Positions 14,266 through 64,000 of a stretch of DNA of 64,000 nt are shown piece after piece. The notes beneath the pieces were generated by a model. That model was given only the letters and a program-made list of their open reading frames with translations. It did no database searches and was not told the DNA's origin. The translations under genes were made by a program, and so were the position numbers. The stretch is from Torpedo marmorata (lineage: Eukaryota). The stretch is from positions 27,280,001-27,344,000 of the forward strand of contig OZ360246.1 of assembly GCA_977017645.1 (NCBI GenBank). The letters run 5' to 3'. Each line of letters opens with the position of its first letter. Positions within the stretch are counted from its first letter, which is position 1.

Positions 14266-15339
14266 ATTATATCAGTCCCTTTGAGTAACATGAGCCAACA
14301 TGCTATCCACAAAATGTTTAACAATAAATTTACAAATGCACAGGAGCAGTGGTGCGGCATCAGGAGATAGATCTGTGAGAATTGCGAATGTGGAGGAAAT
14401 ATTCATACAAATGTCTATTAGACATGATTTATCCATCCCCACCCCCGCTGGCTGGTGCCCCTTTCTGACACCATTTTAAATTCCAACCTTCTTGTGTGTC
14501 CAGCACTGGTCTTTCTTGGTGCGGAGAGCTATTTTCGGATCCTGACTCACTTATTCCTTGCATTATTTTAACATGATGAGCTGCATTCCCAGAATCCATC
14601 GAGAACATAGAAACACAATAGCAGGGGTAATCTTTTGTATCACGAGACATATTCAAACCCAAGTGGAGAGAAAGGGAGGGTGAGAGAAAAGCAGATGATG
14701 ATGGTGGGTTGCAGTAAACTTGGCCTCAAGTAACTCCTACTGAGCTCAGAGGATCCAGGGAGAGTATTAAAGATGATAAATTGGAAAAGCTCCCCATAAC
14801 CTGCCAAATACTCACGATCAATTTTATAGTATAGAGTTTATGTGATGCAATTATCTCACTGTAAGGATACAGAAATTTTTATCAATATAATTAAATCAGG
14901 TTCAGATGGCAATTCGGAGTCTGGTTTAAATTTACCAATAGCCTAATGACTTGCCAGGATACTGATAACTTGGAAAGGTAGAAGTGGCAGGAGTTGTCAA
15001 TACAAGATAATAGTGCAATACACAAACGTGCTGGAGAAACTCAGCAGGTCATGCAACATCCACAGGAAGTAAAAGGCAATCAACATGAGGATAATAGCCC
15101 TTGTGCAACAGCAGTACAGCCCCCCTGACCCCTCAAGGAAGCCTCTTGCCCTTCTGATGATCAAGGCCTCTATCTCCTCCTCTCCAATATCTCGCTCTCT
15201 CCCCGCCTCAGTTCCCGATGGTTTCGTCACCCTGCAACCAGCTGGCCTGAAAATGTGACCAGGTGCTGAACCAGAAACACTACATAAATCATTACAACCG
15301 AAGATCAGGTATTAAATATGGTAACCAGCCACTTCCCAG

Positions 15340-15910
15340 CCTTGCTGTTCTGTACAGGGCTCAGGAGCACAGAACAGGGATCAGGAGCAGGAACGGAGTC
15401 CAGGAACATAGGATCGGGAAGAGGGATCAGAAACAGGGTCCAAGAACACAGCACAAGTACAGGGATGAGGAATAGGATTATAAACAGGGGTCAGGAACAG
15501 GGCCAAGGAATATTGGACGAGCCAAGGGATCAGGAATAGGATTATAAACAGGGGTCAGGTATAGGGTCCAAGAACACAGGACAACTCAGAGATTAGGAAC
15601 AGGGACAGGTTCCAGGAACACAGGACGAGTCAAGGGATCAGGAACAGGATAAGAAACAGGAACAGGGTCCAGGAACATAGGACACCATAGGGATCAAGAA
15701 CAGGCTCCAAAAACACAGTACAGGCATGTGGATCAGGAACAGGAATAGAAACAGGGAACAGGAACAGGGTTCAGGAATAGTATAAGCCAAGGGATCAGGA
15801 ACAGGAATCTGGAACAAGGATCTGGAACAGGATTATAAACAGGGATCAGGAACAGTTTGCAACAACACAGGACACCACAGGGATAGGAACAGGGATCAGG
15901 AAGAGGGCAC
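15340..15910. repeat. Degenerate purine-rich minisatellite built on a ~12-nt (CAGGAACAGGGA/T) unit
   Basis: Dozens of caggaacagg, gggatcagga and attataaacagg variants. Strong A/G bias on the + strand. Confidence 0.85.
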
Positions 15911-18827: not shown

Positions 18828-19070
18828 AAGGTAAAGGTAAAGGTTCCATTATTGTCATGTAATACTACATTTAGAATGTAACATACATGAAATTCTTTAA
18901 TTTTTGTCTACCGTAAGGCAGACAGAGGGTTGCTACTTTGTCCAGCGCCCCTCACAGAAACCTACAGCACCTGGTGTTCCTTGGCGGTCTCCCCTCCAAG
19001 TACTGACCAGTCCTGTGCCTGCTTAGCTTCCGAGATCAGACAATCCCAGTCGTATTCAGGCTATTGGTGC
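18828..19070 (-). mobile_element. 5S rRNA-derived SINE (SINE3-type)
   Basis: Reverse complement has a 5S-like head (gtctgatctcggaagctaagcagg...tggtcagtacttggaggggagaccgcc...ggtgctgtaggttt), a ~120-nt body and a (CCTTTA)n tail. Confidence 0.85.
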
Positions 19071-19759
19071 TGAAAAAGACACCACAAAGAGAAAAAAGAT
19101 AATAAATATGAAAGGAAGAGAAAAATAATATTCGAAGTATTTTAGGGTTCAACAAATGTTTCACGTTTATGTAAGGTGTCAAAGAAAACCACTCACACAG
19201 GGTGGTTTTCAAATGAATCTGGATGGAGAGTTATCAAAACATTCCCAAAATGTCCTTTCAGTGAGGAGGCCTCCAGAGGTTCATACAGTACATGAAAGAT
19301 TGCATTTCTTGCTCAGAGATTTTTCAACCATGGCCTTAGTCATCTCCTCACCCAGTACCCAAGTCGGTCATCTTTCAAGCAGGAATCCTTGGAAAAGAGG
19401 TCAGGAGTAGGACAATAGAAAGGAGCAGCTAACGAGTACAAGGTGAGGGAATGAAGAGCGGAATCTTCTTTGTCTCTCAAGGATACTGTCACTCATCACT
19501 CCCAGTATCCACGGGCAACGTGGCAGAGTAGCGCCTATCCCTCTGACCTCTGCATCCTTGGTGCTCAGCACTCTGCTGGAGACATTGCATCCAAATGCCA
19601 GGCTGGAAATACATTTAGTAGCTGAAACACTGAGGCGTACAGAGAGTTTATATGTTAGTGTGCACACATATACAGTATTTTCTGTAAGGTCATCTTCAAT
19701 TATGTTATAAAGGCATATCCCAATTTTCTTACTGTGTTGCACATTATTCCAGAACCAAG

Positions 19760-20625: not shown

Positions 20626-22742
20626 CAGGGGCGTAGCTTGGTGGGGGAACAGGGCTCCCCCTGCCTTTTCAGCCTGGCAGCGCCCCTGACCCCACTGCCC
20701 TCCCACACCGCATATTTTTGAACTGTGCTGTGAGACCACAGCATCTGCGGCAGATGCCGTGGTCTCACAATTCAAAAACAGGCGCCACTGAATCCCTCGG
20801 CCTACACCGGAGCACCCGACGCCTGTCTGGTGTGCGTGTGCGGTAAGAGGTAGGCCGAGGGGAGGGTTCAGAGTCGGGCGTCGGGAGCTCCGGTGACCGG
20901 AGCTCCCGACGCCCGACTCCGAACCCTCCCCTCGGCCTACACCAGAGCTCCATTTCAAACCACAGGCAACAATCACTGAAAGGAATACACAACTGCTCTA
21001 CTCAACCCCTCCCAAAAAAAAGACAACAAACCGGCAGGTGCGTAGCGGAGTTCATTTGTAAATGATTATTTTGACAGGCTTTTGTGTGCACCCATGCACT
21101 GGGATGGTCCGTTGCAGCTTTTATTTTATATATCCAATAATTGAACGTGGCCTTGGATTTTTTTTCCTCTTGAATTAAAAAATTCAGAATTAATAGTATA
21201 TTTCATAAAAGTCCATTCTTGGGTGAGGTGGATTTGATTCTGTTTGTAAGCCAATTTATTAGCTGCACAGTGGTGGATTTAACTCCCTTTTGAACATTAA
21301 GATTTTCTCAGATGTTGTGTTGGAAAAGTGTCAGATTTTTTTTCATAGCTTGCCTCCTTCCCCGCGGTCCATCGCTAAAGCCGCATGACATTTCCTAAGA
21401 GGTTATAATGCCTTTTTGCATTTTTATGATGAAAAATGCAATCCTATATTTTGTTTTGAATCAAGGTAACATTGTTGTTCGTTCTATCAATGTGGCCAGG
21501 CCTTCAGGAGTATTACAGGCTGCAACGAATTTGCAAAAATAAAAAAGGAATAATGAAATGTACAAAAGGAATTCCTTGCAAAGCCTGTTTCGTTTTATTA
21601 TTTTGACTTCAGTTTAAGAAGCTGACAGAGCCGAGACATGTGCCTTCACGTTGTCGGGTTATTTCCATCCCCTCCTTCCTCACTTCCCTAGCCAGTACTT
21701 ACAATTTTGCCTTGTGGGAGATTCTCAATCTGCAGTTAGTTGTGTTCCTGCAATCTACTCTTCATCTGTTATTGGTGACTTTTCACTGGGAAATTCCCGC
21801 TTTTGCACCAATAGCCTGAATATGACTGGGATTGTCTGATCTCAGAAGCTAAGCAGGACTGGTCAGTACTTGGAGGGGAGACCGCCTAGGAACACCAGGT
21901 GCTGTAGGTTTCTGTGAGGGGCGCTGGACAAAATAGCGACCCTTTGTCTGCCTTACGGTAGACAAAAATTAAAGAATTTCATTTTTGTTACATTCTAAAT
22001 GTAGTATTATGTGACAATAATGGAACCTTTACCTTTTACCTTTACCTTTTGTTTTAAATCGCATAAAATAAAAGCATATTTTTTAAAAAAAAACTTCATT
22101 CCTATCTCTGTTTTGTAAACTTAGTTTTAATATTGTATTTGGAGTTGGGTTTTTCTGTTTAAGATAGGATGGAAGGGAGTCTCAAATGCCCACTGTTCTC
22201 TGTCTGAGGAAGTATTCCATGACTTCACTCCTGAAAACCCTGTCTTTAAATGTTGGATTATGTCTGCTAATCTCTACACTTGGACCAGGACTTCTTGATC
22301 TTTTCCCTTCAGTGACTAGAAAACTTTCATCGGAAGTGAGAATAAATTGTTTTATTTTAAGTAGTAGTGTTTCTAAACTGGACCAATTAATTCTGAAGCT
22401 AGAAAATTTGTGTAGAACTGTTTTCGAGTTGGCAGCAGTGAAACTGCAATACTATTTATTGCACCTTTTGATGATTTGGATGCAGCTTCTCTCCTTGTTT
22501 AATGCCTAATCATGGAGCCAGCTTGTAAACAGAATAAACAATATGCATTATCTCGTGTTATTTGGAGAGAGTGTGTGTGTGTGTGAGAGAGAGAGTGTGT
22601 GTGTGTGTGAGAGAGAGAGTGTGTGTGTGAGAGTGCGCTGGTTGCAAAACATGTGCGTGCGCACACGCGCACAGCTGTGATCGTGGCGCCTTTTTTAATT
22701 TGCTCTCGCTCCCCCTAAAATTAAAACCTGGCTACGCCCCTG
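20626..22742. mobile_element. Non-autonomous hAT DNA transposon (2117 bp)
   Basis: 12-bp TIR CAGGGGCGTAGC / GCTACGCCCCTG with a perfect 8-bp TSD GGCAACTG (20618-20625 and 22743-22750). Confidence 0.9.
21807..22050 (+). mobile_element. 5S rRNA-derived SINE (SINE3-type) nested in the hAT element
   Basis: Same 5S head, body and (CCTTTA)n tail as 18828-19070. Confidence 0.85.
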
Positions 22743-25994: not shown

Positions 25995-26205
25995 GTAAAA
26001 ACACAATGCTGGAGAAACTCAGCAGGTCAAACAGTGTACTTTCTATTGCAAAGATACATAACCAACGTTTGGGGCTTGAGCCTTTCAAGGTATGAAGGTA
26101 CCTTGATGAAAGGCTCTTTATCTTTGCTACATAAAGTACACTGTTTGACCTGCTGAGTTTCTCCAGCATTGTGTTTTTACTTCAATCACGGCGTCTGCAG
26201 ACTGC
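25995..26205. mobile_element. Palindromic Penelope pLTR-derived insertion
   Basis: gtaaaaacacaatgctggagaaactcagcaggtcaaacagtgtactt has its exact reverse complement at ~26134-26180. Confidence 0.8.
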
Positions 26206-27019: not shown

Positions 27020-27260
27020 GAAGTAAAACATGACAGTCTGCAGACACTGAAGTAAAAACACAATGTTGGAGAACTCAGCAGGTCAAATAGTGTACTTTAT
27101 ATAGCAAAGATAAAGATACATAACCAATGTTTTGGGCTTGAATCCTTCATCAAGGTGTGAAGGGCTCAAGCCTGAAACATTGGTTATGTATTGTTATCTT
27201 TGCTCAATAAAGTACACAGTTTGACCTGCTGAGTTTCTCCAGCATTGAGTTTTTATTACA
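27020..27260. mobile_element. Palindromic Penelope pLTR-derived insertion
   Basis: ~100-bp inverted arms centred near 27155. Each arm carries the gaagggctcaagcc.gaaac motif. Confidence 0.8.
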
Positions 27261-27559
27261 AAATATTGCTGTAAATGCTTTATAAATTATAAAATGGTTC
27301 TCAGTAGTTAGAGTGCTCAGAATTTAATAAAAAAATTGCTGCAAACGTTCAGCAGGACAGTCAACATCTGTGGAGAAAAAAACTTTCAAATTTTCAGTCA
27401 GTGACAGCATTGGCAGCTACATGCCAAGAGGCTATTTTGTCAAAATCAGGGGACATATCTTCAGAATTATGGGTTGCCTGTTTAAGACTGAAGAATTTCT
27501 TCTCTCAGAGGGGTTATCAAACTGGAATTTTCTACCTCTGAGGTGAAATCATCAGAGAT

Positions 27560-36489: not shown

Positions 36490-37435
36490 GAGTGGAGAGG
36501 TTCAAGTTCTTGTGAGTTCACATCAGAGGATCTCTCCTGGAGCCAGCACATCGAGGCCACTGTGAAGAACTCCTCTATTTTTCAAGAAGTCTGAGAAGAA
36601 TTAGCATATCATCGGATGACGGCCTGGTTTGGAAACACGATACCGAGGAATGCAGAAGGCTGCAGGAAGTGGCAAACCTAGCCAAGTCCATAGTAAAAAT
36701 GTAGACAGGCGCCCTCCCCCCCCACCCCCCCCAACCGTTTTGATCAGGCGCCTGCCTACGTTTTGCTCATACCTTGATGAAGGGCTCAATCCTGAAACAT
36801 TGGTTTTTATCTTTGCTATATAAGGTACACTGTTTGACCTGCTGAGTTTCTCCTGCATTGTGTTTTGACTTCAATCTCGGTGTCTGCAGACTTTTGTGTT
36901 TTACTCTAGAAATACATTGCACAGGATCTGTAGTTAAACAAGAAAGTGTGCAGATGCTGTGATTTTAGTTTTACAAAATTGCTGGAGAAACTCAGCAAGT
37001 CACACAGCATTCTTTATATAGCAAATCATGGGCACTGACCTCCCGTCCATCAAAATCATCTATATGAGGCGCTGCCTCATGGGCTGCCAATATGAGAAAG
37101 GACCCCCATCGCCCTGGTCACAATCTCCTCTTGCTGATCCCTTCAGGAAGAAGGTACAGAAGCCTGAAGTCCAACACCTTCAGGTTCAAGAAAGTTTTTA
37201 TCCAACAGCTATCAGGCTCTTGAATCTCCCCATACTGTGAAGACCTGAACCATATATTACCCCATGACTACCAAAAATTGAATATTTATTTATCTATCCT
37301 TTGATATTTAACATCTCTTTTTCTATCTTGCATTTGTGGTAATTAACTCTTGTAGCTGGTATATCTTGCATACCTGTTTGCTGCAGCAAGTAAGGATTTC
37401 AGTGCATCTGTATGTGTGTATATTTCAATAAACTC
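36490..37435 (+). mobile_element. Rex1-like LINE fragment interrupted by pLTR pieces (~36692-37024)
   Basis: VERFKFL.VHI.EDLSWSQH...AKSI resumes after the insert as MGTDLPSIKIIYMRRCL...SFYPTAIRLLN. Confidence 0.7.
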
Positions 37436-38144
37436 AAATTGGGTATTGAACATACTACTTTGAGGGAGGAATGTTTCTCACCTTTTAATAGTTTGAATCG
37501 TCAGCTGTGCTGAATGACTTCCAGAAATGCAGCAATTGAAGAACAACTCAAAACTTAAATGGCAATGTTCTCTGAACAGATGAACCTGTTCTTCGTAAGG
37601 TGGAACTTGTCATTAATACTGTGCATTTAAAAAAATAAAAAAAAAAAATTATCCGTTCAATTGGAGTAAGAAAGGTGTACAAGCAAAAAACACTTCCTCA
37701 CTATAGTTTAATCATTTAGAATTCAATTAAATTTGATTTGACACAAAAAATTCAGTGGATCGTGAGCAAGAGAATGCTGATTCTACAGCATTTGTATAAC
37801 TAGATGACTCTTCTCAAGCAATCATTTGGGATCCAGTACGGTTTCTGTCTACTCAGACATAATATATACCATCCATGAAATGCACACTAAAGCTCCTGTG
37901 GTACCTGTAAGAGTCGGTACCTCTACCATCTAGAAGAACTTGGGCAGTAATTGCATGAGGGAAAACCACTGTTTCCATGGCATAAACAATCCTGACAGAA
38001 ATGTCTTGCACTCTGTTGCTGGGTCAAAACCTTGGACTTTCCTACCTAATCATAGTGCGAGTGCAACTTCCCAATGTATATTTACCACCCCACCCCCCAA
38101 ACAAGAAACATCTGAACAATTGTGAATGATCACTAATTGGTGGT

Positions 38145-38706
38145 AAAAAACACAAATGCTGGAGAACTCAGCAGGTCAAACAGTGTCTTTTATGTAGCAA
38201 AGGTAGAAATACATAACTGACGTTTCAGGCTTGAGCCCTTCTTCAAAGTATGAGAAAATGCCGGCAGACGTCCGAACAAAGGAGTGAGGGGGGAAGGGTG
38301 GGTGGGAAAGGCAGAAGATAATAGGTGGAGACAGGAGGGAGGGGACAGTAGCAAAGAGGGGGAGGAGGGATGGCTGGGTAGCTGGAGAAACACAGGAAGG
38401 ACACACCTGTCCTTCCTGTGTTTCTCCAGCTACCCAGCCATCCCTCCTCCCCCTCTTTGCTACTGTCCCCTCCCTCCTGTCTCCACCTATTATCTTCTGC
38501 CTTTCCCACCCACCCTTCCCCCCTCACTCCTTTGTTCGGACGTCTGCCGGCATTTTCTCATACTTTGAAGAAGGGCTCAAGCCTGAAACGTCAGTTATGT
38601 ATTTCTACCTTTGCTACATAAAAGACACTGTTTGACCTGCTGAGTTCTCCAGCATTTGTGTTTTTTACTACATTATTACGGTGTCTACAGATTTTCGTGT
38701 TTACTT
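38145..38706. mobile_element. Young Penelope-derived palindromic insertion
   Basis: Perfect inverted arms 38143-38403 and 38408-38668 with loop CACC. 13-bp TSD ACTAATTGGTGGT (38132-38144 and 38707-38719). Sequence is homologous to the 3' end of the PLE at 9161-10086. Confidence 0.92.
38559..38599 (+). ncRNA. Candidate minimal type I hammerhead ribozyme (PLE-associated)
   Basis: CATACT-[TTGAAGA]-A-GGGC-TCAA-GCCT-[GAAA]C-GTC^AGTTATG. Stem I and stem II are present, with a palindromic ACGT in place of stem III. Departs from the canonical core by C3>U and an extra A. A mirror copy lies on - at 38212-38252. Confidence 0.55.
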
Positions 38707-40076: not shown

Positions 40077-40440
40077 GTGAGGAAGAACTTCACAAGATTT
40101 AGTAGGATTTTACCATAGTTCTTGAGTACATATCAAAGTAGTTGATCATTCCTTGTTTGCAGTCATTGAATAAGATTACAGTTGAGTTGAGCTTTATTCT
40201 GATTTCTCTTGTGCATTGTGTCCAAGACAATTCCCACGACCAAGTTCATGCTTCCTAGTAGCTGGAATGTGCTAACCTATTAGTGTACTCAATGGCATAT
40301 TTTAAGACCATAACCTGTGTCCACATCCATGATGTAAAACTACTGTGAAGCCTTGCTTTCTAAAATTTTCATATTTCTTTCACATAAGCTTCAAATATAA
40401 TAATACAAAAATAAGTGAACTACAGTAAGGTTATTCTTGA

Positions 40441-40771
40441 GCAATGCACAAAAGTGCTGGAGAAACTCAGCAGGTCATGCAGCATCTATAGGAAGTAGAG
40501 GGTAACCGATGTTTTGGGCCTGAGCCCTTCGTTAAGACCTGCTGAGTTTCTCCAGCACTTTTGTGTATTAAAAAGGTTCCATTATTATCACGTAATACTA
40601 CATTTAGAATGTAACATACATGAAATTCTTTAACTTTGTCTACCGTTAGGAAGACAGAGTCGCCACTTTGTCCAGCGCCCCTCACAGAAATGCGACCCCT
40701 GGTTTACAAGACCAGTGCTCTAACCATATTGCACTATAATCACAGTGTCTGCAGACTTTCCTATTTAACTC
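40441..40771. mobile_element. Palindromic pLTR insertion containing a nested chimeric SINE
   Basis: Arms cacaaaagtgctggagaaactcagcaggtc / gacctgctgagtttctccagcacttttgtg. 15-bp TSD TAAGGTTATTCTTGA (40426-40440 and 40772-40786). Confidence 0.85.
40570..40726 (-). mobile_element. Chimeric retroposon: tRNA-Thr(UGU) fragment joined to the SINE3 body and tail
   Basis: Reverse complement of 40692-40726 is TGGTTAGAGCACTGGTCTTGTAAACCAGGGGTCGC, the D arm through variable loop of vertebrate tRNA-Thr-TGT as I recall it. It joins the tttctgtgaggggcgctggac body. TSD TATT. Confidence 0.8.
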
Positions 40772-41193
40772 TAAGGTTATTCTTGATATGGTTCCCTTTC
40801 CATTTGAAATTCAGCCATCAATTTAGCATATAATTAGATTCATCTCGTGCATAAACAGTTTTTCAGAACAAAAGAAGGAGGTATATTCAGTTGAAAGCAT
40901 GAGCTTACATTAATATATAGTTTCATCACACCTTGGCTCCAGCTATACATTATCTTGAAAAAGATCCTGCCAAAATGATTTGTCTAGAAATGTAGCAAAA
41001 GAAGTGTTTAAAAATAAATTGTGATGACCAAAATGCTTTGTTTGCTGAATACTGACATCATTTAGTCATCTATCATAGCAATGCCTTTGATATTTCTGAC
41101 ACTTGTACTTGCTAGGTCTTAGTTCTGTCAACAAGTACCGGTACATATTTTCAGTTAGAAGCAATCTCTTCAATGAATGAAATTTTCCATTGA

Positions 41194-53050: not shown

Positions 53051-53838
53051 TTTAAAAATGGCAGCGCTGCCACTGGTATGGACCAGGGAGAGCGGGGAGT
53101 GGAGATACAGCGCACCTCCGGTGGGTTCTACTGTCCAGTTCCAGGATAAACAGCTCCCTACAGGCTTTAAACAGCCAGTTAAAGGAGCCGACAGTGTTTT
53201 ATTTTAAAATCCTGCGACTGTGGAGTCTGGGCGAGGGGTTGCAGACTCCAGAGAAGCAGAGGACTGGCGCAGTGCACCAGAAAATGGGGAGACACCCCAC
53301 CCCACCCCTGTTTGAGAAGGAGAAACAGAGGAGGCGACCCTACAAGACGGTGACAATGGCGGCGGACCAGTGAGTGGCTCTGCGGCAGAAGAACACACAT
53401 GTGGCGGACTGTTGACAACCTGCAGTCAAAGGACTCGCACCAGGCTGCGGACTGCTGGAGACTAGCTTAAGAGTGTGTAAAGGGGTACCAGGTATCGGAA
53501 CTGGGATGGAAGAGGGAGCCGAGGCGGGAGGGACTCCTGAGGGGCCTCGGACGTTGAAGGCTTCCTGATCGTGTCGGAGGTTTGGATCTGGAGCTCGGGT
53601 GGCTGATGGTTTGCACTGAAGTCTGTGTGACTGCAGAGGCTACAGGAGCACTGGAGGTGAATCCACGGACACTCAGTGACTTTGAAGGGGCTCTATTTTG
53701 CTTCTCTTTCTCGGACTGTGAGGGGCACTGGGCAATTTCTGCTGATGGCGAATCTTTATGTGCCTTATGGCCAACTAAATGCAATTTTGTGTAATATTAC
53801 ATCTGTTTTATTACATGACAATAAAAGAATCTTGAATC
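53051..53838 (+). mobile_element. GC-rich ~800-bp non-autonomous retroposon, divergent copy
   Basis: Starts aaaaatggcagcg and ends atgacaataaaagaatcttgaatc. Colinear with 56050-56916. Confidence 0.75.
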
Positions 53839-54914: not shown

Positions 54915-56049
54915 GTCAGTCATTATTGTTAGCGGCTTTAGTAGGAGGTGACAAAGAGGCAGGAATTTTGCAACATGTTAACTTTCTATTTGATTCCAGC
55001 CTTTACTAGAGACAGCCATTAACTTGCACGTTGCCTTTTGAGATTTTGTTGGGAGCTTTCCCATCTTTGAGTGATTGGGTTCTGAAATCAAGTCAGACAC
55101 ATCGTAATGTATGTTGACACTCCAGTGATTCCCAGGGTGTACTTTTATGTGCCAGGACACCATTTCAACATTTCCAGTATCAACCAATGATACCGGTGTG
55201 CAAATTGGTGGTACATTTCTCAGATAACATCTGATCGTGCACTGAGTTTTTTCTTGACTTTGAAGCCGCGCTGGTGCTGTATAACTTTCTTTCTGTGATT
55301 CCTGCACTGCACATGGCAGAAGTAACCTCCTGTGTTTCTGTAAGCTGCTTTGGACCAGTTTGAGGAACTGTTGCAAAACTATACTGGAATGCAGAATTCA
55401 GAATTAAATATAAACCCAGGGCTTATTTAATTCTTCTGCATCCATGTACTATGCTGCTGTGCTGTTTTTTTTTTGTTTTTTGTTTTTGTTTTTTTTTGTT
55501 TTGTTTTTTTGCTGCCTTTCAGTTTTATAATTCCTGATAAATTATTTTTCTACAAGAGAATGAACTATGAAGCAGCTTCACTAAAAATTAGTACTGTCCA
55601 TGCAGAGTGCTGGTGATCTTCATTGGGCAATATCTTTTGTCTAATTACTTCTGGGTTTCCAGAAACAATGTACCTTCAGAATAAGGCTAATGTTGGTCTT
55701 TGTGAATTTCGATTTCAAATTCATTCTCTCAGCCCCTTGGGTACATGAGGCAGTGCTATGGAGAGAGAATTCCAAATTGAACTGTTGGCGCATTTATTTC
55801 CATTATAGCATTCCTTCCAATTCCAAATGGCCTTTATTTTTTTCATTTGTAAGCTTAACTGCAGAATGTCAAGCTGAGTACAATACTTGTATCCAAGCAC
55901 ATTTTTTTTCCTTGTATGAAAGAGGAGACAGAAGGCTGTCTGCCTTTTCCTCTCCCTAGCTAAGCGACTAAGATTGTTCATTGTGCTAACTGATATCCTG
56001 GTTACAGCTAACTCTGAACCGACGAAAGATGCAACCTGGATGTTTCCCT

Positions 56050-56916
56050 AAATGGCGGCGTTGCCGGAGCCGCTGTAGCGGCAGCACTGGTGCGGACCCG
56101 TGGGGAGCTAGGGAGCGGAGATGCAGCGCTCCCGCGGGGTCCAACCGCCCAGTCAACTGCCGTCGGCTCCGCACGGGCTTTGAACGGCCCGTTGAGGGAG
56201 CCGACAGTGGTTTTATTTGAGATCCCGTGACCGCGGGGTCTGCGCCCAAGATGTGGCTGCTGCCGATTAATAGGTGCTATCGAGGGGCTGCAGACTTCGG
56301 GGAAGCGGAGGACTGGAGCAGGGCACCAGAGGACGGAAATATCACCCCCCCACCCCCCCCCCCACCCCATGTCTGAGAAGGAGAAGCAGAGGAGACAACC
56401 CACGGGACGGTGACCACGGCAGCGGACCAGTGAGGGGCTCTGAGGCTAAAGGACCAGTGCATGCGGCAGGCTGCTGGCGACTTGAGGCGAGGAACCCGCG
56501 GAGGCTGTGGGCTGCTGGACGCTGCTGTTGGGAGACTCACGCCGGGCTGCGGACTGCTGGAGACTGGCTTGAACTGGCTGGAGGAGTACCAGGTATTGGA
56601 ACCGGGATGCAAGGGGGTGCCGAGGGCGCCGAAGGGTTCCTGACCGTGTCGGAGGTTCGGATCTGGAGCTCAAGTTGCTGATGGTTTGGACTGGACTCTG
56701 TGTGGCTGCGGAAGCGCTGGAGGCGAATCTACAGACACTCGGTGACTCTGGGGGGACGACTCTCTTTTGCTTCTCTTTCTGTGACTGTAAGGAATGTTAG
56801 AGGCGCTTAGGCAATTTCTGCCGGTGGCGAATCTGTCTGCCTTGCAGCAGGCAAAGAGAAATTTCATGTAATATGACACTGTTTTGTTACTATGACAATA
56901 AATTGAATCTTGATCT
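56050..56916 (+). mobile_element. GC-rich ~870-bp non-autonomous retroposon
   Basis: Starts AAATGGCGGCG, is CpG-rich, and ends atgacaataaattgaatcttga. Near-identical inverted copies at 59939-60717 and 63688-64000. Confidence 0.85.
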
Positions 56917-57850: not shown

Positions 57851-59446
57851 GTAAAGTGCATTGGATTATTTAAATGCTTCTATGTTTACCGGTAATTGGA
57901 AATGTAGCTAATTCATAAAATAGCAAAGAAAATTTAGTTTAATATTTGCCTTAGAATCGTACACCATGAATTAACTTCTGTAACACTGGTCTGGCATAAC
58001 TATAGGTTCCCCTAATTTGTACTTGGAAGTTTGGACATGGAGGTTATGGGAAGTTTTGTGATGCTCTTATTTTTGATCTCCAAACGGGTCATAGTTTACA
58101 TTACACATACTGAAACATTGAATACATTAAAATACAGAATGCAGTCCACCCGATAGTTCCAAAATGTCCTGAATAGTGCTATTTCTTCAAGATTTTTTTT
58201 GTAACCACTTTGAATTGATTCATGCCAGAGTGTCCCATATCTTGACCAACTTTGATTTAATCTGTGCGAAGTGTTCAATTTGTATGTGTGGAGTTGTTTT
58301 GTTCACCTCTGGTTGAGAGAGTAAATCAAGCTACTAATGAGCTGTGATGTTTAAGTAGTGTGCTGGATTAAACGCTGGCCTTGCACTCAAACAAGATTCC
58401 AGAGGTGAATCTCAAACTGATACAATGACAGTTTTCCTATGACTGGATGCCAGCTGATCAAAAGGAAAGTGATGCACTCCTCAAATGTTCCTCAGTGAAG
58501 AACAAAACATAACACCTTTTTTCTTCCAATTGCCTTCCCATGTCTTCTGAAAACACCAACTTCTCCTCTTCGCTGGATTGAGACCATTCTCAACAATGCT
58601 TTTCATTCTTGTCCTAACTGTTTTGATCAAAATTCAGATTTATTATCAGAGTACATACATGACATCACATACAACCCTGAGATTCGATTTCCTGCAAGCC
58701 AGGCAGAATTTCTACTTATCGTAGTGCAAAAGTCTGTACTCAAGAAAAGATGCGTATAAAAAGAGAGAAATGTAAACAAAAAGGAAGTGCAAACTGTGTA
58801 ATACAGAAAACAAATATTCAATAATAAATACAGGCAGTCCCCGGGTTAAAAACGAGTTCCATTACCTAGGTCTGTTTTTAACTCGAATTTGTATTTAAGT
58901 CGGAACGAGTACATTTAGCGTCAGTTAGTCAAATGTTTATCTTAGTATATAGCATATATAGTATATATTTTATGTTTCTATGCATGTAAAACACTTAAGA
59001 AACACTTCCAAATACACTACAACATCTTAAACATAATAATACAGTACATAATTGGATGATGTAGGAGAAGATGGAGAGATGGCGACTGTTGGAGAGGATG
59101 GACCTGGTGCTGGAGAGTCAGGGTTTGATTTTTGCCACGTGAAACTTGGAGGTGGAATCAGCTGCAAAGAAGCATCTTTTCATTTCGAGCTGCCTTTAAC
59201 CCAATGAGGCAGTAAAGAGTCATCAAACTATTGTTTCACGAATCACTTGTAAACCAGACGAAATAAGAGTACAACACGGTTAATACGTTCCAAGCAAGTT
59301 CAGTGCTATGGAAAACCACTGTTCAAAGCATTATTACAATGCACTTTAACGTAATACGATCCAATGCTATAAAAGGGATATATAAAGATCTTTATTGGCA
59401 ATAAGTAACATCGTTTATTTAAGAAAAAATTTGTCTAATGTAGTTC

Positions 59447-59937
59447 ACCCCTAACCCTAATGCGTTGTTCAGTGGTTTGGAAACTCGTTGGTCTAACCCT
59501 AACCCAGGTGTTCCCCTCCATACAAACTGGCATTGTTCAGTGGTTTGGAAACTGGCTGGTCTGCCGCATCAGAGCAGAGACAGAAAAAAACAGATTCCCA
59601 TCAGTGTAAGGCAGCGTGCTGCGGGATAGTGCAGGGAGCCCGATCACAGTGGGGACAGCAATAACTTTCAACACAGCCACTTAACTCTCTCTATTCCACA
59701 GCTCAGTGCCCATACAAACTGGCGTTGTTCAGTGGTTTGGAAACTTGCTGGTCTGCCCCCTAACCCTAATGTGTTGTTCAGTGGTTTGGAAAATCGCTGG
59801 TCTGCCCCTAACCCTAATGCGTTATTCAGTGGTTTGGAAACTCGCTGGTCTGCCCCTAACCATAACTCTAACCCAGGGGTTCCCCTCCATACAAACTGGT
59901 ATTGTTCAGTGGTTTGGAAACTCGCTGGTCTGCCGCA
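59447..59937. repeat. Tandem array of 6 cores (ttgttcagtggtttggaaactcgctggtctg) with CCCTAA telomere-like linkers
   Basis: Six core copies at ~59465, 59533, 59725, 59775, 59822 and 59902, with CCCTAACCCTAA between several of them. Confidence 0.9.
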
Positions 59938-59938
59938 T

Positions 59939-60717
59939 TCAAGATTCAATTTATTGTCATAGTAATAAGACAGTGTCATATTCCATGAAATTTCTTTTTG
60001 CCTGCTGCAAGGCAGACAGATTCGCCACCGGCAGAAATTGCCTAAGTGCCTCTAACATTCCTTAGTCAGTTAAAGAGAAGCAAAAGAGAGTCCCCCCAGG
60101 GTCACCGAGTGTCCATAGATTCGCTTCCGCAGCCACACAGAGTCCAGTCCAAACCATCGGCAACCCGAGCTCCAGATGCAAACCTCCAACACGGTCAGGT
60201 CGCCCTCGGCACACCCTCGCATCCCGGTTCCGATACCTGGTACTCCTCCAGCCAGTTCGAGCCAGCCTCCAGCAGTCCGCAGCCTGGCGTGAGTCCCCTG
60301 ACAGCAGTCTCCAGCAGCCCACAGCCTCTGCGGGTTCCTCACCTCGAGTCGCCAGCAGCCCGCCGCATGCACTGGTCCTTCAGCCTTAGAGCCCCTCACT
60401 GGTCCGCCGCCGTGGTCACCGTCCCGTGGATTGTCTCCTCCGCTTCTCCTTCTCAGACGGGGGTGATCTTCCCGTCCTGTGGTGCCCTGCTCCAGTCCTC
60501 CACTTCCCCGGAGCCTGCAGCCCCTCGTGGCTGCTGCCGGTTAAAAGGCGCTGCCATCTTGGGCGCAGACCCCACAGTCGCGGGATCTTAAATAAAACCA
60601 CCGTCGGCTCCTTTAACGGGCCGTTTAAAGCCCGTGCGGAACCGACAGCAGTCGACTGTATCTCCGCTCCCACGCTCCCCGCGGGTCCGCACCAGCAGCA
60701 GCGCTGCCGCTACAGCG
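59939..60717 (-). mobile_element. GC-rich non-autonomous retroposon, nested in the Tigger-like element
   Basis: Reverse complement of ~56071-56912. Inserted between ccgcat and cagcgcagac, a junction that is intact in the duplicated block at ~59561-59580. Confidence 0.85.
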
Positions 60718-63688: not shown

Positions 63689-64000
63689 TCAAGATTCAAG
63701 ATTCAAGATTCAATTTATTGTCACAGCAATACGACAGTGTCATATACCACGAAATTTCCCTTTGCCTGCTCCAAGGCAGACAGATTCGCCATCGGCAGAA
63801 ATTGCCTAGGCGCCTCCAACATTCCTTACAGTCAGAGAAAGAGAAGCAAAAGAGAGTCCCCCCAGAGTCACCGAGTGTCCATAGATTCGCCTCCAGCGCT
63901 TCCGCAGCCACACAGAGTCCACTCCAAACGATCGGCATCCCGAGCTCCAGATCCGAACCTCCAACACGGTCAGGTCGCCCTCGGCAGCCCCTCACATCCC
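63688..64000 (-). mobile_element. GC-rich non-autonomous retroposon 3' end, running off the window
   Basis: (TTCAAGA)3 tail, then the reverse complement of ~56600-56905. Confidence 0.85.

Follow-up and report, generated by a model that had tools for sequence, protein, structure and literature searches.

Several pairs of short interspersed elements (SINEs) have been reported in which a 5S rRNA head and a tRNA head are carried on a common kind of tail. In the part of the report available to us, the coelacanth families CoeSINE4 (tRNA head) and CoeSINE5 (5S head) have similar LINE-derived 3' sequences, and the moth families HaSE3 (5S) and HaSE1 (tRNA) have tails from the same LINE (PMC5786205). 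The springhare families Ped-1 (5S) and Ped-2 (tRNA) were likewise described, in the excerpt available, with tails from the same LINE (PMC3747384). For the hagfish family SINE1-1_EBu, the accessible text proposed a birth in which a new small-RNA head was placed on the 3' part of an older SINE by recombination or template switch (PMC7245038), and module exchange was termed well known in the accessible portion of a chimaera SINE paper (PMC5499810). Head swapping between SINE families is an already known route of SINE birth.

In the present study, we analyzed a window of 64,000 nucleotides from Torpedo marmorata (contig OZ360246.1, positions 27,280,001 to 27,344,000) together with its genome. With high confidence, we regard the SINE copy at 40570-40726 as a damaged copy, unique in its form, from a tRNA-Thr(UGU)-headed family of more than 1,100 copies. 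The tail of this family is also that of a 5S-headed family of more than 13,500 copies, and the tRNA-headed family likely arose once by head replacement on an older 5S SINE. The pair represents sister families of the SINE2 (tRNA head) and SINE3 (5S head) types, derived from one likely head swap. It resembles CoeSINE4/5 in that a SINE2 and a SINE3 with similar LINE-derived 3' sequences occur in one genome; in the coelacanth, however, the shared part was described in the available text as a bipartite RTE segment (5' and 3' UTR), whereas the Torpedo pair shares a single 3' end of about 120 nt (PMC5786205). As far as the available texts go, the springhare and moth pairs also combine 5S and tRNA heads with one LINE tail, but they have BovB/RTE partners (PMC3747384, PMC5786205), whereas no coding partner LINE of the Torpedo pair was found in the 30 loci read, and the Ped-2 head came from an ID SINE, whereas the Torpedo head is a near-intact tRNA-Thr (PMC3747384). 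SINE1-1_EBu is similar in the proposed addition of a head, with parent and daughter families active together in hagfish, but in the excerpt consulted it differs in its 7SL head, RTE tail and multi-part body (PMC7245038). No description of the tRNA-headed family was found by title or abstract in the literature searched, which largely excludes subscription journals; judged from those titles and abstracts rather than from repeat-database consensuses, the SINE2 family is probably undescribed.

The sequence at 40570-40726 is one insert of 157 nt on the minus strand. The earlier note had described it as the body of two 5S-headed copies joined to a tRNA-Thr(UGU) fragment without a B box and enclosed by one 4-bp target site duplication (TSD), and this description was correct. 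The head remnant occupies 40692-40726 (minus strand); read from 40726 to 40692, its 35 nt were identical to positions 16-50 of the 73-nt tRNA-Thr gene L152, so that the proposed match to a tRNA-Thr of this genome was found. The reference consisted of four gene-like tRNA-Thr(UGU) loci found by pattern and called by ARAGORN, L152 being among the genome's genes. The remnant contains the last A-box bases, the 3' strand of the D arm and the anticodon arm, while positions 1-15 are missing and the B box is absent. ARAGORN called no tRNA in the window, and Rfam gave the remnant just 17.3 bits (E 0.8); the identification of the head therefore rests on comparison with the genome's own gene. Directly after the remnant, 40691 (minus strand) is the last base of a 2-nt linker that joins the tRNA end to the body in the family, whereas gene L152 continues with G after position 50. 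The shared body and tail (40570-40690, minus strand) comprise TTT, a LINE-type 3' end of about 115 nt with a predicted terminal hairpin, and an eroded ACCTTT tail.

The target site was resolved by comparison with host copies. The insert interrupts a small palindromic host repeat (40426-40785), which has its own 14-bp direct repeat at 40426-40439 and 40772-40785. Uninterrupted copies of this repeat (window 15006-15046, L047 and L026) carry a single TATT, and the insert is flanked by two, at 40566-40569 and 40727-40730. For the left copy, contigs from four public runs gave further evidence, since they pass 40569 into the letters that follow the right-hand TSD. The result confirmed the 4-bp TSD, a single pair around one insert of 157 nt. 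As to presence in other organisms, none of the public-run contigs on the left flank and body bridged the insertion. Relatives of the palindromic host repeat are numerous in the window (for example 25995-26203, 27051-27279 and 36806-37033).

To place the insert among related elements, it was compared with the two 5S-headed copies in the window, at 18828-19072 (minus strand) and 21807-22050 (plus strand), both recognized by alignment and by Rfam 5S. The 5S match at 18959-19077 (minus strand) scored 45.6 bits, above the cut-off of 38, and that at 21807-21910 (plus strand) scored 34.3 bits (E 0.0028), under the same cut-off. The alignment confirmed that the same body starts from the same base in both copies and in the insert. 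Genome-wide, the body start had 17,134 exact matches, the 5S junction 13,581 and the full tRNA-Thr junction 868. These counts are lower bounds because they come from exact-match patterns, and all reversed-pattern controls gave 0. When the spacer between the anticodon arm and the body was allowed to vary, 1,143 places had a spacer of 31-40 nt and 20 had one of 1-30 nt. A DNA search with the insert, in which 40 of 1,455 candidates were scored, retrieved 29 other loci, all tRNA-Thr-headed; most of them have the T arm, acceptor end and 2-nt linker before the body, and the retrieved copies with a full-length spacer carry the whole tRNA. The tRNA-headed copies are dispersed: the junction matches listed are spread along contigs C1 and C2, and other copies lie on further contigs. 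ARAGORN called tRNA-Thr(tgt) in four of six full-length copies and tRNA-Lys(ttt) in one, with no call in the sixth. The family 3' ends are an (ACCTTT)n microsatellite, and a crude automated scan of 93 copies gave TSD candidates of 4-9 bp in 36, the other 57 having none. One of the two readings put forward in the earlier note, a sister SINE family with an exchanged Pol III head, was thus supported by the 868 exact full-tRNA junctions and the 1,143 full-length spacers.

The two families also differ within the body. Among 56 tRNA-headed copies, of which 30 (the window copy included) were picked by likeness to the window copy and in which unreadable cases are counted in the total, body position 41 was T in 52 and body position 58 was G in 50, whereas neither base was found in any of 105 5S-headed copies. 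The T at position 41 was also present in 23 of the 26 tRNA-headed copies not picked by likeness. Taken together, the junctions and the linked alleles show, at the level of sequence, that there are two families, each with its own fixed junction. With T at body 41 and G at body 58, the window copy carries the two alleles of the tRNA-headed family. Further variation was observed inside the tRNA-headed family: G at body 27 occurred in 15 of the 56 copies, all within the 30 picked by likeness and including the window copy, while 100 of 105 5S-headed copies have A. Among the tRNA-headed copies in L002-L030 and L048-L197, one subfamily combines this G with the gene's base at tRNA position 48, the commoner subfamily has T48 and A27, and some copies show paired changes in the T-stem. 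Two side observations concern individual loci: an inverted body duplicate lies at the 5' side of the SINE in L084 and L125, as expected from twin priming or fold-back, and L175/L176 and L187/L188 are pairs of identical SINE loci that lie 18-23 kb from each other and are likely segmental duplications.

These alleles bear directly on the other reading in the earlier note, in which, during this insertion, reverse transcription began on a 5S-SINE RNA and jumped at the head/body border to a tRNA-Thr fragment. Such a one-off switch would account for a junction that is unique in the genome and for 35 nt identical to a tRNA gene, and tRNA-fragment/LINE-1 chimeras do exist in primates according to the accessible part of a recent preprint (10.1101/2025.02.02.635956). 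The body alleles of the window copy, however, occur in none of the 105 5S-headed copies, and this linkage refutes the switch. The linker base is supplied by neither the 5S family nor the tRNA gene, which leaves the switch unsupported, and is explained by the full-length tRNA-headed family alone. Moreover, 19 other shortened copies were found in that family. The published chimeras share with 40570-40726 a tRNA piece 5' of a retroelement and one TSD, but in the available text they are one-off products, mostly of antisense 5' tRNA halves (positions 1-37) rather than sense positions 16-50, whereas the window copy belongs to a family that was amplified and has itself decayed (10.1101/2025.02.02.635956). 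We consider a switch at this insertion extremely improbable, since body alleles and linker base both belong to the tRNA-headed family.

The damage to the window copy was then described relative to a full-length copy, L018. The alignment showed that the window copy corresponds to a full-length tRNA-family copy without its first 15 nt and without a further 24 nt from the T arm to the acceptor end, with a few other small differences. Its 35-nt head is accordingly read, on sequence evidence, as a truncated and internally deleted form of the full tRNA head and not as a product of capture. The 24 nt equal the exact spacing of two G-runs that open imperfect 8-nt direct repeats in the head. A 25-nt deletion in L003 has nearly the same register, the breaks in five of the 20 shortened copies fall at direct repeats of 3-4 nt (judged by eye), and 5S heads show similar deletions (L183, L191 and L193). 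From the G-run spacing and these similar deletions, we infer slippage: the 24-nt deletion would have arisen by a slip between the two G-runs, during reverse transcription or later in DNA. The window junction occurred once in the genome (exact pattern) and is the shortest of the 20 shortened ones. At 40570-40726 the features of an active source are absent: there is no B box, little of the A box is left, and the junction has no second copy. Because the B box is missing and the junction has no second copy, the copy is predicted to be inactive.

The earlier note had further suggested a body that acts as a portable module and picks up different small RNAs. In favor of such repeated capture, the same base of the body serves as the joining point for two unrelated Pol III heads, and 2,685 of the 17,134 body starts had neither exact junction. 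A sample of the body matches was read. Among 90 copies from the first 100 listed body matches on contig C1, unselected for head, 80 had a 5S head, 7 a tRNA-Thr head and 3 no head. An upstream dinucleotide fitting neither junction was found in 63 matches, and the 30 read comprised 17 tRNA-Thr-headed, 4 5S-headed and 9 headless copies. Body matches without the last T numbered 243, and the 30 read comprised 21 5S-headed, 2 tRNA-Thr-headed and 7 headless copies. Thus, a third head was seen in none of the 150 copies, neither among the 90 unselected ones nor among the 60 chosen for odd junctions. The 19 headless loci gave no match in Rfam or ARAGORN, both of which can miss short RNA fragments, and their upstream sequences were unrelated to one another except for one duplicated pair; these loci resemble 5' truncations, apart from one that resembles an inversion. 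The proposed tabulation of 5' neighbors, carried out on this sample, yielded 5S, tRNA-Thr or no head, with the tRNA junction recurrent. With just two heads in 150 copies, repeated capture is very unlikely. The coincidence of the breakpoint with the 5S/body boundary, which had been taken as a sign of portability, is explained by the one fixed junction of the whole family.

Two families that share a body from the same base raise the question of which came first. The tRNA head was identical to gene L152 at 71 of 73 positions (97%), and the 5S head to its gene at 93 of 115 (81%). In addition, the TTT at both junctions matches the U-run that ends the 5S gene and is absent at this place from a LINE-like element of 850 nt related to the body. 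On these two grounds, the greater divergence of the 5S head from its gene and the match of TTT to the 5S gene end, the 5S family is probably the older one, and a single event at the U-run, either a template switch or a ligation, would have supplied the tRNA head. In this process, a LINE reverse transcriptase copying the 5S SINE RNA would have reached the U-run where 5S and body meet and then switched to a tRNA-Thr transcript, or been handed a ligated one. The resulting founder would have possessed A and B boxes and been transcribable by Pol III. Some observations weigh against this order. Divergence of copies from their own consensus was equal in the two families, at 2.1% for 80 5S-headed and 2.2% for 7 tRNA-headed copies, and the G at body 27 of the tRNA-headed subfamily is the base of the 850-nt element, which does not fit a clean nesting. 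Instead of 5S, a pre-tRNA trailer could be the source of the TTT. The same two families might have formed with the tRNA-headed one first, or with both heads joined independently to a LINE-derived tail. The G at body 27 agrees with such a history, as does the fact that both Pol III transcripts end in U-runs. Against it stand the divergence of the 5S head from its gene, which greatly exceeds that of the tRNA head, the position-41 allele that the 5S family has in common with the 850-nt element, and the hot spot that independent joining at the same base would require. We therefore consider these other orders unlikely. A tandem 5S rDNA array with a spacing of about 3.1-3.8 kb was observed elsewhere (L156-L167, G000:C25:86.20-86.56 Mb).

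Under the preferred order, with the tRNA head added to an older 5S SINE, the tRNA head itself may retain traces of its source. In the tRNA-headed family the A box is intact, and tRNA position 58, within the B box, was T in 43 of 43 readable copies, whereas it was A in the four gene loci. T58 departs from the B-box consensus, and A58 is the site of m1A. This modified base, m1A58, is misread by reverse transcriptases. A-to-U changes at tRNA position 58 have been counted in 499 versus 453 reads, although in the accessible text the authors doubted an explanation by misincorporation (PMC2359750). T58 may tentatively be read as a fossil: an actual tRNA-Thr molecule with its methyl group, joined at the 5S U-run, would have been the template from which the founder head was reverse-transcribed. 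We regard this as somewhat doubtful. The same pattern would be left by a simple mutation in the founder or by selection against m1A. The 2-nt linker could be a remnant of CCA or a decayed gene trailer. A possible short leader was seen before the tRNA, with T at -1 in 17 of 23 copies and G at -2 in 12 of 23; it points more to a precursor or a genomic flank than to mature tRNA as the source of the head. If the fossil reading were true, T58 would be direct sequence evidence that a SINE head swap took place on RNA rather than through recombination of DNA, in an unusually young and clean case.

The origin of the body was examined by alignment with the 850-nt element. The body aligned end to end with its 3' end over the last ~120 nt, with scores of 113-114; shuffled controls had means of 42-44 and maxima of 60 and 73 in 300 shuffles. 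The alignment thus shows homology between the SINE body and the 3' end of this LINE-like element, which is non-coding and reaches ~850 nt. Since the body aligns from end to end in this way, little room would appear to be left in it for a central conserved domain of the Deu, CORE, V or Meta type. The element (L198-L222 among others) is abundant and dispersed, has a GC-rich 5' part, is often 5'-truncated and ends in (TTGAATC)n. Its copy at 53057-53835 (plus strand; start approximate) is about 780 nt long, and the SINE body is homologous over its whole length to the last ~120 nt of this copy. Further copies in the window lie at about 56030-56915 (plus), 59937-60700 (minus) and 63700-64000 (minus). 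Inspection of frames longer than 150 aa in 25 loci revealed no reverse-transcriptase-like frame, and neither a Pol III head nor a coding frame was seen in the element. A derivation of the body from the 5S spacer or a tRNA-gene flank was tried and rejected; six loci gave weak matches, the best of which was a neighboring 850-nt element.

Regarding the partner LINE, none of 30 loci read from 243 matches was a coding LINE sharing the SINE tail. The window contains a LINE that we call Rex1-type, a name assumed from its motifs; a frame of this LINE in L186 matched PF09004 above the cut-off and RVT_1 just below it. Its 3' UTR scored 43 against the body and 45 in the shuffles, which is no better than chance sequence. 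A predicted hairpin and a short conserved motif, together with a microsatellite, nevertheless form the end of the SINE, of the 850-nt element and of the Rex1-type LINE, although the hairpins were no more stable than shuffles (z -0.6 to -1.1) and RNAalifold found no compensatory pairs in nine tails. A Rex1-type LINE is a plausible partner of the SINEs, and a LINE machinery common to both families would copy them by recognizing the terminal hairpin. Separately, a headless SINE body was observed at L186:1500-1640, where it interrupts the frame for reverse transcriptase in a Rex1-type LINE copy.

The locus 40570-40726 itself matters little, as a dead and damaged copy. The family pair adds a further case in which 5S and tRNA heads have been exchanged over a common LINE-type tail. 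As it is young (about 2% divergence) and its tRNA head is nearly unchanged, it is a convenient case in which to ask how heads are swapped, whether by a template switch on RNA, by ligation or by recombination of DNA. It also allows one to ask if A58 was lost by a copying error or under selection because m1A58 would stop the reverse transcriptase. Words of a full-length tRNA-headed copy were present at a share of at least 0.5 in six public studies, a weak signal with none marked as a possible source, and the sequencing runs listed for these words included no RNA. Among the other repeats in the window, a perfect inverted repeat with 264-nt arms 4 nt apart (38140-38671) was the source of most spurious Rfam miRNA matches, and two short-period tandem arrays lie at 15422-15867 and 59426-59938, the second with telomere-like TAACCC units.
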